This document shows, in pieces, positions 4,881 through 31,979 of a DNA stretch of 32,650 bases. The DNA is from Candidatus Komeilibacteria bacterium (GTDB lineage: Bacteria; Patescibacteriota; Patescibacteriia; UBA1558; S5-K13): contig JAUVAE010000002.1 of the NCBI GenBank assembly GCA_030591905.1, forward strand, positions 1 through 32,650, in the 5' to 3' direction. Both the position numbers and the translations under genes were made by a program. Each line of letters starts with the position of its first letter. Position 1 is the first letter of the stretch. Below the pieces are notes generated by a model. That model saw nothing but the letters and a program-made list of their open reading frames with translations, had not been told where the DNA came from and searched no databases.

Positions 4881-4907
4881 TTGTCATTCTGAACTTGTTT
4901 CAGAATC
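4881..4907. repeat. TTGTCATTC...GAATC hairpin repeat (same family as the arms of 26373..26460)
   Basis: ttgtcattctgaacttgtttcagaatc with stem attctgaa/ttcagaat. Ends match ttgtcattccgag...gaggaatc at 26374. Confidence 0.6.
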
Positions 4908-4925
4908 TGGAATTTATTACATTTT

Positions 4926-5025
4926 GGGTCCCCTCCCTGCCTGCTGGCAGGCAGCCTCAGCCTCGCCCCGTATAAAGCAAAGCTTTTGTACGGGGTAGAG
5001 AGGGGAGACAGGGGTGGTGGTGTTG
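4926..5025. repeat. GC-rich composite of nested palindromes (three-way-junction-like)
   Basis: Outer pairing gtcccctc (4928-4935) with gagggg..ac (5000-5009) encloses hairpin ctgcctgc-tg-gcaggcag (4937-4954) and hairpin ccccgtataaagc..gcttttgtacgggg (4966-4995). A T-run follows at about 5025. Confidence 0.6.
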
Positions 5026-5056
5026 ATTTTTTAAACAAAGATATTATTATTTTAAT

Positions 5057-5310
5057 AATGTTTCATTCTGTTGATAGCAAATTGATGATGATTTTTTATT
5101 GTTTGGTGATAACTTTTCTTTTACCACCCCTTTTTAGAAAAGTGGTGGTTCCGCAAAATCGCGCCTATACAAAAATTTAGATAATTTTTCATTTAGACAA
5201 ATAAATTTCTTTAATCGTCATGTTTATTCCTCATAGAAATTCTGTTTGTCTTAATTCAAATTCTAACTAAATATTTTGTAATGGCGCATAAAATGCAAAT
5301 TAAATACAAA
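5057..5310 (+). ncRNA. Candidate structured non-coding element, copy A (homologous to 31598..31841)
   Basis: Collinear similarity by eye with copy B. Hairpin 5124-5148. Long-range pairing 5161-5180 with 5267-5287. Inner hairpin 5195-5210 with 5235-5251. Conserved apical loop tcgtcat..attcctc. Compensatory changes relative to copy B. Confidence 0.4.
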
Positions 5311-11636: not shown

Positions 11637-13118
11637 ATGGTTAAAACAAAAAAGAAAAAAAATTTAAAGAAAATTATTTCTAAACTTATTTCCCTGCCTA
11701 CCGGACAGGCAGGTAAAAAGAAAGCTGCTAAAGAGAAACCTGTTAAAAAAGTTGTCAGAAAGAAAGCTGCTAAAAAGAAACCTGTTAAAAAAGTTGTCAG
11801 AAAGAAAGCTGCTAAAAAGAAACCTGCTAAAAAAGTTGTCAGAAAGAAAGCTGCTAAAAAGAAAGCTGCTAAAAAGAAACCTGTTAAAAAGAAAGTTACT
11901 AAGAAAGTTACTAAGAAAAAGGTTTCTAAAAGGTCTGTTAAAAAAGTTGCTAAAAAGAAACCAGCTAAAAAGAAACCAGCTAAAAAATCAACTAGAAGAA
12001 AGTCTAGGAAAAAAATTAAAAGAAAAAAAGAAGATATTATTTTTCCAAAACAGGATCGCCTAAAAGCATTAATGAGAGAGGGTAGAAATAGAGGATTTAT
12101 AACTGAGAATGAACTTTTATACTCATTTCCAGAATTAGAAGAATATTTAGAGTTATATGAGAAATATTTGGATGACATGGAGGAAAATAGTGTAGATATA
12201 TTAATTAATGAAATTGGATTATTGAATAATGCTGAAGAGGATGAAGCTGGTGTAAAATTAGATATTTCAGGTGTTACTTTTGATTTGGGAAAAATTTCTT
12301 CAGATTCTATTCAGATGTATTTACGGGAAATTGGTAAAGTTTCTTTGTTAACTTTTGAAGAAGAAGTTGCTTTAGCAAAAAGAAAAGAAAAAGGCGAGGT
12401 TGCTGCTAAAATCCAATTGATTAAGGCTAATTTAAGATTAGTGGTAAGTATCGCTAAAAGGTATACGGGACATTCATTGTCATTATTGGATTTAATTCAA
12501 GAAGGTAATATTGGTTTATTTAGGGCAGTGGAAAAATTTGAATATCGGAAAGGTTATAAATTTTCAACCTATGCTACCTGGTGGATTAGACAAGCAATTA
12601 CTAGAGCGTTAGCTGATCAATCTAGGACGATTAGAATACCTGTTCATATGGTAGAGACAATAAATAAATTTCAACAGGTTCAGAGAAGATTAATTCAAGA
12701 TTTAGGTCGAGAGCCTTTACCAGAAGAAATTGCTTATGAAATGGGAGAAGATTTAAATAAGATTCATCATGTTATTAAAATTTCTCAAGAAACAGTTTCT
12801 TTGGAAACAAGCATTGGGGAAGACGATGAAGATTCTACTTTAAGTGATTTTATTGAAGATAAAAAAACTATTCCACCAGATAAGGTTGCTGCTTTAAGAT
12901 TATTAAGAGATCATGTTAAAGAAATAATTTCAGATTTAACTCCTCGAGAACAAAAAATATTAGAAATGCGTTTTGGTTTAACAGATGGTATTGCTCATAC
13001 TTTGGAAGAGGTAGGGCAAGAATTTGGGGTTACTAGAGAAAGGATTAGACAAATTGAGGCTAAGTCATTAGAAAAAATTGCAGCCAAACATGGTATTGTT
13101 AAGCTAAAAGATTATTAA
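11637..13118 (+). CDS. rpoD: Primary-like RNA polymerase sigma-70 factor with Lys/Ala-rich repetitive N-terminus
   Basis: Region 2 [40 protein letters not shown]. Region 3 [13 protein letters not shown]. Region 4 [23 protein letters not shown]. About 125 N-terminal residues of [14 protein letters not shown] repeats. Confidence 0.95.
11693..11713. repeat. CCTGCC..GGCAGG palindrome copy inside rpoD (reads LPTGQAG)
   Basis: cctgcctaccggacaggcagg, 7-bp arms, GC-rich island in AT-rich coding sequence. Confidence 0.75.
11721..11890 (+). repeat. 42-bp tandem coding repeat (three near-identical units plus partial units)
   Basis: Units 11721-11762, 11763-11804 and 11805-11846; unit 1 and unit 3 each differ from unit 2 by a single nucleotide (aaagctgctaaaaagaaacctgttaaaaaagttgtcagaaag). 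Degenerate continuation to about 12035. Confidence 0.9.
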
Positions 13119-13134
13119 AATTAGGAATTTGTAG

Positions 13135-13201
13135 AGACGTAGCGACGCTACGTCTGCCTGTCTGCCGGTAGGCAGGTACGAAAAGTAGGGTTGATTTTTT
13201 T
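13135..13201 (+). terminator. Composite palindrome module after rpoD (terminator-like)
   Basis: Perfect hairpin agacgtagcg-a-cgctacgtct (13135-13155), then ctgcctgtctgccggtaggcagg (13154-13176), then a T8 run at about 13194-13201. Confidence 0.6.
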
Positions 13202-19847: not shown

Positions 19848-19858
19848 GAAATAGTTGT

Positions 19859-19877
19859 CTGCCTGCCGGTAGGCAGG
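19859..19877. repeat. CCTGCC..GGCAGG palindrome copy after secE
   Basis: ctgcctgccggtaggcagg, 12 nt after the stop codon. Confidence 0.8.
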
Positions 19878-20585: not shown

Positions 20586-20649
20586 TTTGAATTCTTAATT
20601 ATTAATTTTGAATTTCAATTTAATATTTAATTAATAATTTTAAAACAAA

Positions 20650-21045
20650 ATGAAAAGCGATTTAAAAAAGTCTTATGACTTGGAAGATAGAACTTGTCAA
20701 TTTGGAGAAAAAATTATAGATCTTTGTAAATCAATTAAACAGGATTTAATATCTAGACCAATAATCAGTCAATTAGTAAGATCAGGAACTAGTGTTGGAG
20801 CTAATTATTTAGAAGCGAACGGAGCGAGTTCAAAGAAAGATTTTAGACATAAGATATATATTTGCAAAAAGGAAATTCAAGAAACAAAGCATTGGTTAAT
20901 AATGATAGAAAGATATAGACCAGAATTAAAAAATAAAGTAGAGTTGTTACGAAAGGAAACCCAAGAATTAATATTGATATTTGGTAAAATAGCTTCTACT
21001 CTACAAAATGATAAATTAAACATTAAAAATTCTAATTTAAATTAA
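20650..21045 (+). CDS. Four-helix-bundle protein (23S rRNA intervening-sequence protein family)
   Basis: QLVRSGTSVGANYLEANGASSKKDFRHKIYICKKEIQETKHWL matches the family signature. Confidence 0.85.
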   Translation: MKSDLKKSYDLEDRTCQFGEKIIDLCKSIKQDLISRPIISQLVRSGTSVGANYLEANGASSKKDFRHKIYICKKEIQETKHWLIMIERYRPELKNKVELLRKETQELILIFGKIASTLQNDKLNIKNSNLN

Positions 21046-21079: not shown

Positions 21080-21502
21080 ATGGCTAAAAAAGTAAAAACA
21101 ATTATAAAATTACAAATACAAGGTGGTAAAGCAAATCCAGCACCACCAGTTGGTCCAGCTTTAGGTCAACACGGATTAGATATTCAAGGTTTTTGTACAA
21201 GATTTAATGATGCTACTAAAGATAGAATGGGAGAAGTTATTCCAGTAGTGATTACTGTTTTTGAAGATGCAAGTTTTGATTTTATATTAAAAACTCCCCC
21301 AGCTTCAGATTTATTAAAAAAAGCAGCTGGTATTAAAAAAGGTGCTGGAAATCCTTTATTGGATACAGTAGCTACTATTACTAAATCTCAGCTTAAAGAA
21401 ATTGCTGAAAAGAAAATGCCTGATTTAAATGCTTATGACGTTGAAGCAGCAATGAAAATTATTGCTGGAACTGCTAGACAAATGGGAATAAAGATTAAAT
21501 AA
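21080..21502 (+). CDS. rplK: 50S ribosomal protein L11
   Basis: [24 protein letters not shown]... Confidence 0.97.
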
Positions 21503-21609
21503 TTTATTTCATAAATTATTTAAAATTTTTAATTTTTAATTTTTAATTTTAATTAAATGTTTAATGATTGAATTTTAAATTAATTTTAAATTTTGAAAAA
21601 AATAAAATT

Positions 21610-23369: not shown

Positions 23370-23413
23370 TACCTGCCTGCCGGCCTGTCTGCCGATAGGC
23401 AGGTAGGCAGGTA
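23370..23413. repeat. Doubled CCTGCC..GGCAGG palindrome
   Basis: tacctgcctgccggcctgtctgccgataggcaggtaggcaggta, a long imperfect palindrome 12 nt after the rplA stop. Confidence 0.8.
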
Positions 23414-26372: not shown

Positions 26373-26460
26373 TTTGTCATTCCGAGCAAGGTCGAGGAAT
26401 CTTTAAAGTTAATAATATTTAAATATAGAAAGATTTCTCCACTACGGTCGAAATGACAAA
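26373..26460. mobile_element. MITE-like 88-bp element with 29-bp imperfect terminal inverted repeats
   Basis: tttgtcattccgagcaaggtcgaggaatc (26373-26401) versus the reverse complement of 26432-26460, tttgtcatttcgaccgtagtggagaaatc (22/29 identical by hand count). AT-rich centre. Confidence 0.55.
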
Positions 26461-26494: not shown

Positions 26495-27307
26495 ATGCGT
26501 CAATATCTGAAGTTAATGAAAAAAATATATGAGGAGGGGAAAGATAGAGAAAATCGAACTGGTGTAAATACTCGAGGTATTTTCGGGGCTCAGCTGCGTT
26601 TTGATATCTCGGAGACATTTCCTTTACTAACTACCAAAAAAGTCCATTTACGTTCAATTATTCACGAATTACTATGGTTTTTAAGTGGTAATACAAATAT
26701 TAAGTATCTTAATGATAATAATGTAAGTATTTGGGATGAATGGGCCGATGAGAATGGAGATTTAGGACCGATTTATGGTAAACAATGGACAGCTTGGGAA
26801 TCTAATGACGGAACTAAAATTAATCAAATTCAATATGCCGTCGATCAAATAAAAAATAATCCAATTTCGAGAAGAATTATTGTTAGTGGTTGGAATGTGG
26901 GAGATTTACAAACCTTAATTAAAGGTCAAAAATCAGCTCCACCGCCATGCCATTCATTGTTTCAATTTTATGTAAGCGAAGGGAAATTATCTTGTCAGCT
27001 TTATCAACGAAGTGCAGATTTCTTTTTAGGAGTACCTTTTAATATTGCGTCTTATTCTTTATTAACCATGATGATGGCTCAGGTTTGTGGTTTAAAACCG
27101 GGAGAATTTGTGCATACTTTTGGTGATGTTCATATTTATAATAATCATTTTGAACAAGTTGAAAAGCAATTAGCCCGACAGACTAGAGAATTACCAACTA
27201 TGAAAATTAATTCAGAAGTTAAAGATATTTTTAAATTTAAGTTTGAAGATTTTACTTTAGAAAATTATGATCCGCATCCGGGCATTAAAGCACCAATAGC
27301 TATTTAA
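26495..27307 (+). CDS. thyA: Thymidylate synthase (ThyA type)
   Basis: [21 protein letters not shown], catalytic [29 protein letters not shown]. Confidence 0.97.
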
Positions 27308-27424
27308 TTTCTAATTTCTAATTTAAAATTTCAATTTAATATCTAATGACCAAATTTTGAATTAATTTAAAAATTAAAAATTCGAATTTTAATTAAAATT
27401 TAAAATTAATAATTAAAAATTTAT

Positions 27425-27922
27425 ATGGCGAAGCCATTATTAAGTATAATTTGTGCGATTGGAAAAAACAGAGCTATTGGTAGAGACAATAAGCTTCTTT
27501 GGGATATTCCGCACGATTTGCAACATTTTAAAGATATTACTTCTGGTCATCCAGTCATCATGGGTCGAAAAACCTTTGAATCTATTGGTCGACCATTAGC
27601 AGGTAGAACAAATATTATAGTTACTCGTGATGAGTCATATCAGCAGGATGAATGTGTTATTTGTCATTCCTTAGAAGAAGCTATTGCAAAAGCTAAAGAG
27701 ATTGACCCAGAAGAAGTTTTTGTGATTGGTGGTGGGTCAATTTATGCTCAAGCAATCGATTTAGTAGATAAACTTTATTTAACTATAGTTGATGACATAG
27801 TAGAGGATGCTGATACTTTTTTTCCAGAATATTCTCAATTTAATAAAATTATTAAGGAAGAACATTTTGAAACTGATGAACTTAAATATTCTTTTGTTGA
27901 GTTAATTAGAGACGATTCATGA
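27425..27922 (+). CDS. folA: Dihydrofolate reductase
   Basis: ICAIGKNRAIGRDNKLLWDIPHDLQHFKDITSGHPVIMGRKTFESIGRPLAGRTNIIVTR, VIGGGSIY. Confidence 0.95.
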   Translation: MAKPLLSIICAIGKNRAIGRDNKLLWDIPHDLQHFKDITSGHPVIMGRKTFESIGRPLAGRTNIIVTRDESYQQDECVICHSLEEAIAKAKEIDPEEVFVIGGGSIYAQAIDLVDKLYLTIVDDIVEDADTFFPEYSQFNKIIKEEHFETDELKYSFVELIRDDS

Positions 27923-28623: not shown

Positions 28624-29489
28624 TTCTTCAATTTTATAACCATAATTCTATTAAGACCTTGCAGGTCTTTTTTTATTTGAATAGTAAGTTTAGAATATAT
28701 CTTTTTTATGTAAGTAGTTAAAGGTTTAATTTGTTTTGGATCCAGTTCTATTAAAATATATTTTGGTTGATATTTGCCTGTCTGCCGGTAGGCATGGAGT
28801 TTAGAAATTTGTTCAAATAATTTTTGATAATAATAAAGCCCATTTTTACCCCCATATAAAGCTTCTATAGGTTCGTAGCGGATTGATTTATCAGTATATT
28901 TATTTTTTAAATAAGGTAAATTAGCTATCAAAATGTCTATTTTTTCTTTTTTTAATTTATCTAAAAGGTTTGATTTGATAAATTTAATTTTAGAACTTAC
29001 TTTGTTTAATTGAGCATTCTTTTTTGCTATTTGTAGTGCTTTAGCAGAAATATCTGTAGCAGTTATTTTTTTAACGCCGTTTTTTACTAGACTAATAGCA
29101 ATACATCCCGAGCCAGTACCAATTTCAACAATTCGTAGGCGACCCGTCGGGTCAGCTTCAACGACCCGACGGGTCGCATCCACAAGTAATTCGGTTTCTG
29201 GTCGAGGGATTAAAACATTTTCATTAACTTTGAATTTTAAACCATAAAATTCTTTGTAGCCTAAAGTATAAGGAATTGGATAATAGGCACTTCTTTTTTC
29301 AATTAAGCTTTGGTATTTTTTAGTTTGTTTCTGATTTAATTTTAATTCTGGATAAGTATATAAATATTCTTTGTTCTTTTTTAAAACTAGAGATAATAAT
29401 AATTCAGCATCTAAATATGCTGAATCTATTTGAGAATCATTTAATTTTTTTGTCCCCCAGATTAAAATTTTTCGCAAATCATTTTTCAT
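28620..29489 (-). CDS. prmC: Release-factor glutamine N5-methyltransferase
   Basis: [27 protein letters not shown] (NPPY variant). The MKNDLRK start at 29489 overlaps the prfA stop by 11 nt, so the longer 29540 ORF is rejected. Confidence 0.88.
28775..28794. repeat. CCTGCC-family palindrome copy inside prmC (reads HAYRQTGK on the minus strand)
   Basis: tgcctgtctgccggtaggca is identical to the 13156-13175 copy. Confidence 0.8.
29139..29177. repeat. GC-rich double palindrome inside prmC
   Basis: gcgacccgtcgggtc (29139-29153) and gacccgacgggtcgc (29163-29177) are perfect 15-bp inverted repeats. Each contains its own GACCCG-N-CGGGTC palindrome. Encodes [13 protein letters not shown]. Confidence 0.9.
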
Positions 29490-31484: not shown

Positions 31485-31597
31485 TTAAATGAAAAAATCA
31501 CCAGCTTTAGCTGGTGTGTGCGTTTGAAAGCGTAGCGGTTTGTTTAGCACATTATTGTGCGATCTGTATTAAATACCATTATTTATTTTATTTAAAC

Positions 31598-31841
31598 AAT
31601 GTCTTGCTACGTTGATAGCATACTGAATAAGATTTTTCATTGTTTTGAGATAACTTTTCTTTAACTACCTTTTTCTAGAAAAAGGTAGTGCCAAAAAGTC
31701 GCGTCTAGACAAAAATTTAGAGAATTTATCATTCAGCTAAATGAATTTCAATATTCGTCATTCCCATTCCTCGTAGAAATTCTATTCAGCTTCTTTCAAA
31801 TTGTATCTAAATATTTTATAGGACGCAGAAAATACAAAAAG
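31598..31841 (+). ncRNA. Candidate structured non-coding element, copy B (homologous to 5057..5310)
   Basis: Hairpin actaccttttt-ctag-aaaaaggtagt (31664-31689). Long-range pairing 31701-31720 with 31807-31826. Inner hairpin 31736-31749 with 31776-31790. Conserved loop tcgtcatt..attcctc. Confidence 0.4.
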
Positions 31842-31880
31842 ATGGCTTTATTTTTTAATGAATTGAAAATTGAATCATTA

Positions 31881-31900
31881 CCTGCCTGCCGGTAGGCAGG
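31881..31900. repeat. CCTGCC..GGCAGG palindrome copy
   Basis: cctgcctgccggtaggcagg. Confidence 0.8.
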
Positions 31901-31940
31901 GATATTAAATTAAAATTTAAAATTAGAAATTGAAAATTCA

Positions 31941-31967
31941 AAAAACTCCAATCCAAGCGGAGTTTTT
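31941..31967 (+). terminator. Hairpin/T-run terminator upstream of the rpsB promoter
   Basis: aaaaactcc-aatccaagc-ggagttttt. Confidence 0.55.
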
Positions 31968-31979
31968 GCTATAAAAGCA

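Follow-up and report, generated by a model that had tools for sequence, protein, structure and literature searches.

The window analysed here, i.e. the whole stretch of 32,650 nucleotides at the start of contig JAUVAE010000002.1 of a Candidatus Komeilibacteria bacterium, carries genes of the housekeeping type (dnaG, rpoD, nusG, thyA, tmk, prmC, prfA, rpmE and rpsB). A Pfam search of 27 open reading frames (ORFs), covering 32.6 kb, found no transposase, no RAYT/TnpA and no reverse transcriptase among them. It is noted that the window and its relatives, with ~28% GC, DUF5671, a Beta_propel protein and dockerin/Big-domain proteins, resemble small genomes of the candidate-phyla type, and that the rpoD-like sigma-70 ORF (11637-13118) contains N-terminal lysine-rich tandem repeats with periods of 42 nt and 15 nt (11703-12038).

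Upstream of DUF1653 and upstream of rpsB, the window contains an element of ~260 bp in two same-strand copies that are ~78% identical, copy A at 5030-5299 and copy B at 31569-31840, both on the plus strand. A preliminary description had pointed out this collinear pair, with edges that do not hold, the true ends lying slightly outside them; the pair itself is recovered by MAFFT alignment and by a repeat search, the latter giving 78% identity between 5047-5141 and 31588-31682 and 75% identity between 5115-5280 and 31655-31820. Both copies also match one external family model with E = 1e-21 to 1e-30. The repeat is real and lies well above chance expectation.

The core unit has three parts, namely an AT-rich leader, a hairpin of 11 bp (P1) and an imperfect palindrome of ~127 nt with a GC clamp as its closing helix, and its last letters are ..AAAATACAAA. 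Copy A, which starts with TTTAAACAAAG... and ends with ...ATAAAATGCAA, has P1 at 5123-5149 (ACCACCCC TTTTTAG AAAAGTGGTGGT), the long palindrome at 5161-5287, comprising the clamp GCGCC/GGCGC, the helices P3a and P3b, an internal loop and an inner helix, and the apical loop at 5210-5235, which reads TCGTCAT..ATTCCTC on the plus strand and GAGGAAT-N4-ATGACGA on the minus strand. Copy B has P1 at 31664-31689 (ACTACCTTTTT CTAG AAAAAGGTAGT), the palindrome at 31701-31826 with the clamp GCGTC/GACGC, and the apical loop at 31750-31775, which reads GAGGAATGGGAATGACGA on the minus strand (hairpins, palindromes and loops being annotated without a strand). Folding of the single copies gives the same architecture for A (z = -3.6) and B (z = -2.1), i.e. 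the short perfect hairpin P1 and the long GC-clamped hairpin with an apical loop of ~24 nt, in which both copies, as described before, keep TCGTCAT and ATTCCTC.

Scanning with Rfam 15 at the gathering score gives no match for the element, and at E<=10 the two regions give only chance snoRNA/miRNA matches of <24 bits; on the related loci nothing matches the element either, in line with the earlier failure to recognise a known RNA family. Plasmid and phage collections contain no similarity to it, and a scan of viral contigs gives one chance match only, which is identical to locus L034. The preliminary description also likened the apical loop to a TTGTCATTC..GAATC repeat family. This does not hold: the motif occurs at chance frequency (14 found versus 14.2 expected) and only two sites are alike. 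These two, at 4881-4909 and 26374-26402, have the form TTTTTCTTGTCATTC-hairpin-GAATC and lie just 3' of genes, their likeness to the core loop extending over only 8 nt.

The surroundings of both copies contain further repeats. A GC-rich mosaic repeat (4926-5022, plus strand), ending in GGGGAGACAGGGGTGGTGGTG, adjoins the 5' edge of copy A; it is present also at loci L032, L023 and L001/L035, and the junction GGTGGTGTT(T)GATTTT with the core is seen in three independent core copies, so that either the two travel together or one targets the edge of the other. At the other locus, copy B is part of a block at 31485-31975 (plus strand), in which the core is preceded by a 5' extension of ~90 nt and followed by an AT-rich tail, where a REP-like palindrome is nested, and by a bidirectional terminator. 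The nested palindrome, CCTGCCTGCCGGTAGGCAGG (31881-31900, no strand), is one of six intergenic members of this GC-rich palindrome family, the others being at 4936-4955, 13157-13176, 19858-19877, 23372-23387 and 28777-28792, versus zero expected by chance at 28% GC. Intergenic AT-rich repeats of the AATTTTAAATT type lie upstream of several genes (20590-20664, 21491-21598, 27306-27426 and 31905-31943), the last of them within the tail after copy B.

Relatives of the element and their insertion sites

Pattern scans of public genomes and metagenomes, with the apical-loop motif as the search pattern, give ~20 further copies, so that the search for homologues that had been suggested at the outset has a positive outcome. 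Among species-representative genomes there are 9 loci, of which 8 lie on separate contigs of MAG CAZAOE01, several of them <300 nt from a contig end, and 1 lies in MAG CAZXCJ01. The 30 loci from the metagenomes comprise 21 true copies, as judged by nhmmer, and 9 GC-rich chance matches. A covariance model built from 13 copies finds no additional members in 258 kb of related loci.

The copies are of two classes. The first one, represented in the MAG and the Ga0265594/Ga0268277 series, has the core as an inner part of an element of 470-515 bp with terminal inverted repeats (TIRs) that start with GGCTCT..., where GGCTCTACAATATAACC..CTGTGG is paired with ..CCACAGTGTTTGACAGAGAGCC. At four insertions the element is flanked by perfect 8-bp target-site duplications (TSDs), namely TATTTAAA, GTAAAACT, ACAAAATT and AATAAAAA, and at two further ones the match is 7/8, giving six independent sites in all. 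This class 1 element, which amplification has brought to 8 copies or more in one related MAG, is a textbook MITE. The MITE origin that the preliminary description had allowed for as a caveat is thus seen in relatives, and the finding it had said would indicate a plain MITE, namely many copies with target-site duplications, is what the related MAG presents, with the core within the TIR/TSD element. Inverted repeats starting with GG(C/T)TCT and an 8-bp duplication are traits of the ISL3 and IS6 families, and the inverted-repeat start and TSD length of the TIR-bearing relatives are compatible with a derivative of either family. No full-length autonomous IS with the inverted repeats of the MITE is present in ~330 kb of related loci.

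The second class is core-only. It comprises both window copies and the copies at L036=L038, L032, L023 and L012=L013 (Ga0307990-92 series), which match only positions ~150-410 of the MITE; copy A aligns by nhmmer to model positions 151-454 only and is without TIR arms. A fuzzy search for both MITE TIRs found neither anywhere in the window. The six core-only copies have identical 5' and 3' boundaries at unrelated loci; their 5' flanks are T-rich and the element begins with TAAA, with no fixed motif among the copies. A much more divergent core-only copy (L015b, at L015 1752-1961, the same as the copy in L004) resides inside the MITE-rich MAG. In the identity matrix, the MITE copies are 88-97% identical among themselves, with values of 76-86% against copy B and against the L036 group; for copy A and the L012 copy the identity to copy B, the L036 group and the MITE copies is 74-82%, and L015b is 62-69% identical to all. 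The MITE clade is nested within the core-only diversity, and therefore the core appears to be the older unit, with the MITE probably being a later composite that would have captured the core and then amplified it.

The rpsB locus allows a comparison of filled and empty sites. Database searching gives two homologues of the 114-aa ORF that precedes copy B (on contigs L040 and L041), where the ORF terminator is followed by ~40 nt and then by the rpsB promoter, giving an intergenic region of ~115 nt with no element, versus a gap of ~600 nt between the ORF and rpsB in the window; what is missing from these empty sites is the whole block at 31485-31975. The rpsB locus of a more distant relative, L012, is filled, and 3' of its core come the AT-rich tail and terminator that the window has as well, with the palindrome CCTGCCTGCCGGTAGGCAGG being absent from its tail. 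Since the 114-aa ORF is 93% and 75% identical to that of the window in the two empty relatives and 69% identical in the filled one, the pattern of filled and empty sites does not follow the gene tree. Moreover, comparison of the two filled orthologous sites gives only 74% identity for their cores, which is below the identity of either core to copies elsewhere. Because two closer relatives lack the rpsB-locus copy and a more distant one has it, the family is mobile, now or formerly. Comparison of the filled with the empty sites shows no unambiguous duplication around copy B, the sequence there being AT-rich. The region 5' of DUF1653 is without a core in the 953-kb relative L043, and in a relative 84% identical (L042) none is seen within the 113 nt of sequence present.

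In relatives without the element the promoters of rpsB and DUF1653 are conserved, and thus the insertions do not replace promoters. Both window copies lie between the terminator of the upstream gene and an intact downstream promoter. It is also noted that in L012 another element of ~190 bp (~1008-1200), with inverted ends TAGACTTGTTACGCAATAA.../...TTATTACGCAACAAGTCTA, separates the rpsB promoter from the start codon; the window has no such element there.

Conservation of the fold

Covariation was assessed on an alignment of 13 distinct copies from which nested insertions had been removed. P1 and the clamp are recovered by RNAalifold, together with a long helix that is almost uninterrupted. Scored on a structure of 51 pairs (P1, P2, P3a/b and P5a/b), 90.5% of the cells are paired, versus 38-53% when the 3' partners are slid, and 17 pairs show changes on both sides, versus 7.6±1.7 in shuffled alignments (0/500 reaching the observed value) and 2-6 in the slid controls. 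The covariation claimed from two copies thus passes both the shuffle and the slide controls, and the signal rises as more copies are added.

The three compensatory helices that had been read from A and B are present as described. P1 differs by C:G to T:A at two pairs, the closing helix is GCGCC/GGCGC in A and GCGTC/GACGC in B, and the outer part of the inner helix has A-T/C-G versus C-G/T-A. Across the family, P1 has four covarying pairs, P1 pair 12-38 has U-A in six copies versus A-U in five, and the clamp takes the further forms GTGCC/GGCAC in L012 and GCGAAC/GTTCGC in L015b. In L015b the inner helix is unrelated in sequence but complementary (CATCC..GGATG; AAAACTTTGA/TCAAAGTTTT), with the overall fold kept. 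The conserved secondary structure of the family is well supported, and the data support a discrete, conserved, structured and non-coding element.

Several copies, including the L012 copy at the rpsB locus, carry inserts of 43-88 nt from other small elements in the linker or the stems, which argues against a tight constraint on every copy. Three families of tiny self-complementary inserts are nested at differing points of the MITE and core copies, one of 43 nt (L003/L005/L007/L009), one of ~50 nt (L008/L014/L025/L031) and one of 78-88 nt (L012 758-845 and L025). The TAGCGACGTAGAGCGAGAGG...AATCTTTAT insertion occurs at two different sites, after ..TAT.

RNA or DNA, and which strand

Among 612 cells of the paired positions in 12 copies, 553 are Watson-Crick pairs, 10 are G·U and 11 are A·C. 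An A·C mismatch on the plus strand is a G·U pair on the minus strand, and transitions from a Watson-Crick pair yield G·U or A·C equally. The numbers of 10 versus 11 equal the neutral expectation and thus give no sign of selection on the RNA of one strand. The minimum free energy on the minus strand equals that on the plus strand in the MITE copies and is lower by 5-11 kcal/mol in all the core-only copies. Neither result supports the preliminary view that G-T pairs favour a plus-strand RNA. The scarce wobble pairs and symmetrical mismatches are as predicted for a palindrome that is maintained at the level of DNA.

Transcription signals were considered for both strands. No intrinsic terminator is present at the plus-strand 3' end of the unit, and the terminator after copy A appears to be ancestral to the locus; the promoter matches of the window copies are weak (9/12) and occur at chance frequency. 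In L015b a canonical sigma-70 promoter, TTGACA-N17-TATAAT, lies ~45 nt upstream on the plus strand. A strand-specific RNA-gene signature with promoter and terminator is not found in the family, this promoter being the sole exception. As a separate observation, in L015 1690-2050 (minus strand), identical to L004, a canonical promoter block of 40 nt, CTTGACAAAAAA(T)TTAAATTATATATAATGATTAAATA, stands on both sides of the divergent core, and the second promoter is followed by ~550 nt of non-coding sequence, with no Rfam match, upstream of an ORF resembling thymidine/AMP-phosphorylase.

The minus strand has more of the suggestive features than the plus strand. In its apical loop, GAGGAAT-N4-ATGACGA amounts to a Shine-Dalgarno (SD) site properly spaced from an ATG, an arrangement that is unlikely by chance. 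In most copies the conservation of the loop is an artefact of ascertainment, the loop having supplied the search patterns; the comparison of A with B and that with L015b, the most divergent copy, are independent of this, and in L015b the motif is partly retained. The ATG opens a mini-ORF along the 3' arm, MTIKEIYLSK in A (10 codons), MTNIEIHLAE in B and MTSIEIHLAE in the MITE. After the clamp the minus strand continues with GAC-TTTTT, which is terminator-like.

These features can be interpreted as an expression or attenuation module on the minus strand, with a GC-clamped hairpin plus U-run and a loop whose SD and ATG open a mini-ORF of 3-10 codons. Such a module might be either the relic of a transposase 5' leader and start from a parent IS, or an RBS/ATG cassette resembling Neisseria REP2, where repeats carry promoter, RBS and ATG (PMC3184786). 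It would account for the presence of the spaced SD and ATG in all copies (as GAGGAG..ATG in L015b), for the better minus-strand folds of the core-only copies, for the minus-strand terminator downstream in copy B (31516-31499) and for the order of inverted repeat, TATAAT, leader, SD and ATG in the MITE orientation, which is that of insertion sequences. Against it stands the mini-ORF itself, whose peptide is not conserved, being cut to MTK* by a 1-nt indel (a frameshift) in L012 and replaced by the unrelated MIMKRRVSKF in L015b. Moreover, neither window copy has a gene downstream on the minus strand, the neighbours being convergent; a leader derived by deletion from an IS does not explain identical TIR-less boundaries at six loci; and the excess of A·C over G·U, 11 to 10, is not significant. 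We regard this module as an unlikely explanation.

A broader form of the RNA explanation is that the core is a self-contained structured RNA gene that spreads among intergenic sites without TIRs and was captured and amplified by a MITE in one lineage, acting either as a plus-strand anti-Shine-Dalgarno regulator or through the minus-strand hairpin with SD, ATG and mini-ORF. We judge it rather improbable that the core is such a gene, as it shows neither the strand signature nor the transcript boundaries nor the stable synteny that would speak for one.

More doubtful still is the specific version in which the element encodes a trans-acting sRNA of ~200-250 nt on the plus strand, with its C/U-rich loop UCGUCAU..AUUCCUC pairing with target mRNAs at GAGGAAU..AUGACGA and the MITE having merely captured and amplified it. 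The covariation in all helices, the sharp unit boundaries common to the copies, the anti-SD-like loop, kept in part as CUCCUC in L015b, the promoter upstream of that copy and the co-orientation of three core-only copies with their flanking genes would all fit an sRNA. By contrast, G·U pairs are not in excess on the plus strand, which in all core-only copies folds less stably than the minus strand; a convincing promoter is absent from the window copies, and the unit does not end in an intrinsic terminator; large insertions are tolerated in the stems; copies are present or absent among relatives; and Rfam gives no match.

Least probable among these is domestication by the host, in which the palindrome, lying between convergent or tandem transcription units, would act in termination or insulation or would bind a protein. 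The copies are always intergenic, adjoining terminators and upstream of promoters, the structure is conserved, and the minus-strand clamp with its T-run is terminator-like, all of which would fit such a role; against this, the closest relatives have no copy at the same locus, dedicated terminators already flank A and B, and copies carry disruptive insertions. Other identities were rejected: a 6S-like RNA (no Rfam match, most of the 'bubble' paired by RNAalifold, multi-copy and mobile), a DGR template/variable repeat (both copies intergenic, differences not adenine-specific), tmRNA, tRNA-like, HEARO/omega RNA or ribosomal-protein leader (no support from ARAGORN or Rfam), an integron attC (no R/L box pattern), a conserved plus-strand ORF (45 codons in the MITE, 4986-5180 in copy A; not conserved between copies) and a minus-strand ORF of 23 codons in the 5' leader of copy B (missing in the other copies).

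A proposed mobile palindromic repeat

We propose that a small, dispersed and lineage-specific DNA repeat, that is, a mobile DNA palindrome, is represented in the window by two diverged copies without TIRs, and we give this reading a probability of roughly 0.55. The conserved object would then be the DNA palindrome of the element itself, not a plus-strand RNA gene. The palindrome may be required during processing of the element as a folded DNA single strand, by analogy with the logic of REPINs or of IS200/IS605-like elements. Alternatively or in addition, its arms may be kept complementary by template switching inside the palindrome; template switching within quasi-palindromes is an established mechanism that keeps arms complementary. 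The window copies would be passengers in permissive gaps, 3' of the upstream terminators and 5' of the DUF1653 and rpsB promoters. Since they have neither TIRs nor an identifiable TSD, the DDE/TIR route would not have placed them. Further points speak against this reading: the six core-only copies share exact boundaries and the loop motif is kept in part even in the most divergent copy, both of which suggest a function beyond that of inert DNA, and the spaced SD and ATG of the minus strand, the promoter upstream of L015b and the lack of a transposase in the window count against it as well.

The family is multi-copy, dispersed, insertion-polymorphic and without a transposase ORF, as MITEs are. 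Like the bacterial MITEs (Neisseria Correia/NEMIS, pneumococcal RUP and enterobacterial ERIC/RU), it is small, non-coding and intergenic, it folds into a long stem-loop, its presence varies among relatives, and the element of the sister MAG has bona fide TIRs with 8-bp TSDs. The differences are that six copies (the two of the window and four others) show neither TIRs nor a detectable TSD, that the hairpin conserved in the core lies internally and is not made by TIRs, and that the core-only form appears to be ancestral to the TIR-bearing one.

The likeness to REPINs and other elements of the IS200-IS605 type (HUH: RAYT/TnpA) lies in the lack of TIRs and of an identifiable TSD, in the extragenic location, in a core that folds equally well on both strands, which a hairpin at the level of DNA would be expected to do, and in the long imperfect hairpin with frequent compensatory changes between its arms, such changes being documented in mobile hairpin repeats of this kind (PMC3116915). 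By contrast, REPINs are ~80-110 bp and GC-rich, whereas the core is ~260 bp and AT-rich; moreover, there are only 2-4 core copies per core-only genome, with no RAYT/TnpA gene within the window and no conserved tetranucleotide evident in the flanks. Compensatory changes are likewise documented in bcr1 of the Bacillus cereus group (~155 bp), which is also a lineage-specific dispersed repeat of non-conserved distribution, with a two-stem structure kept by such changes (PMC3184786); bcr1, which has no sequence similarity to the core, has 5-bp direct repeats and is known to be transcribed. With Neisseria REP2, which has an RBS and an ATG inside a folded repeat (PMC3184786), the core shares the SD and ATG of its minus-strand loop; REP2, however, supplies these signals to a downstream gene, whereas the ATG of the core opens 3-10 codons and no gene follows. 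As to 6S RNA and other large Rfam ncRNAs, the core is similar in size range and in its long irregular hairpin with internal loops, and differs in having no Rfam match at E<=10, a mostly paired bubble, several mobile copies and no strand signature. The family is a previously uncatalogued repeat, best classed with the structured mobile intergenic repeats (MITE, REPIN or bcr1-like).

If the RNA-gene explanation were true, the element would be a mobile ncRNA that travels as a hitch-hiker with a transposon, in an uncultured bacterium with a small genome, and a transcribed core would exemplify how a MITE can capture and amplify a structured RNA module. A point of caution is that a two-copy element with textbook compensatory changes mimics a new ncRNA and is read here as mobile palindromic DNA; covariation without a strand signature in G·U versus A·C is insufficient to establish an RNA gene. 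Finally, in this apparently small genome of ~28% GC the intergenic regions form a mosaic of nested mobile repeats (the core, the GC-rich REP-like palindromes and the 43-88-nt inserts), which are strain markers and account for assembly breaks.
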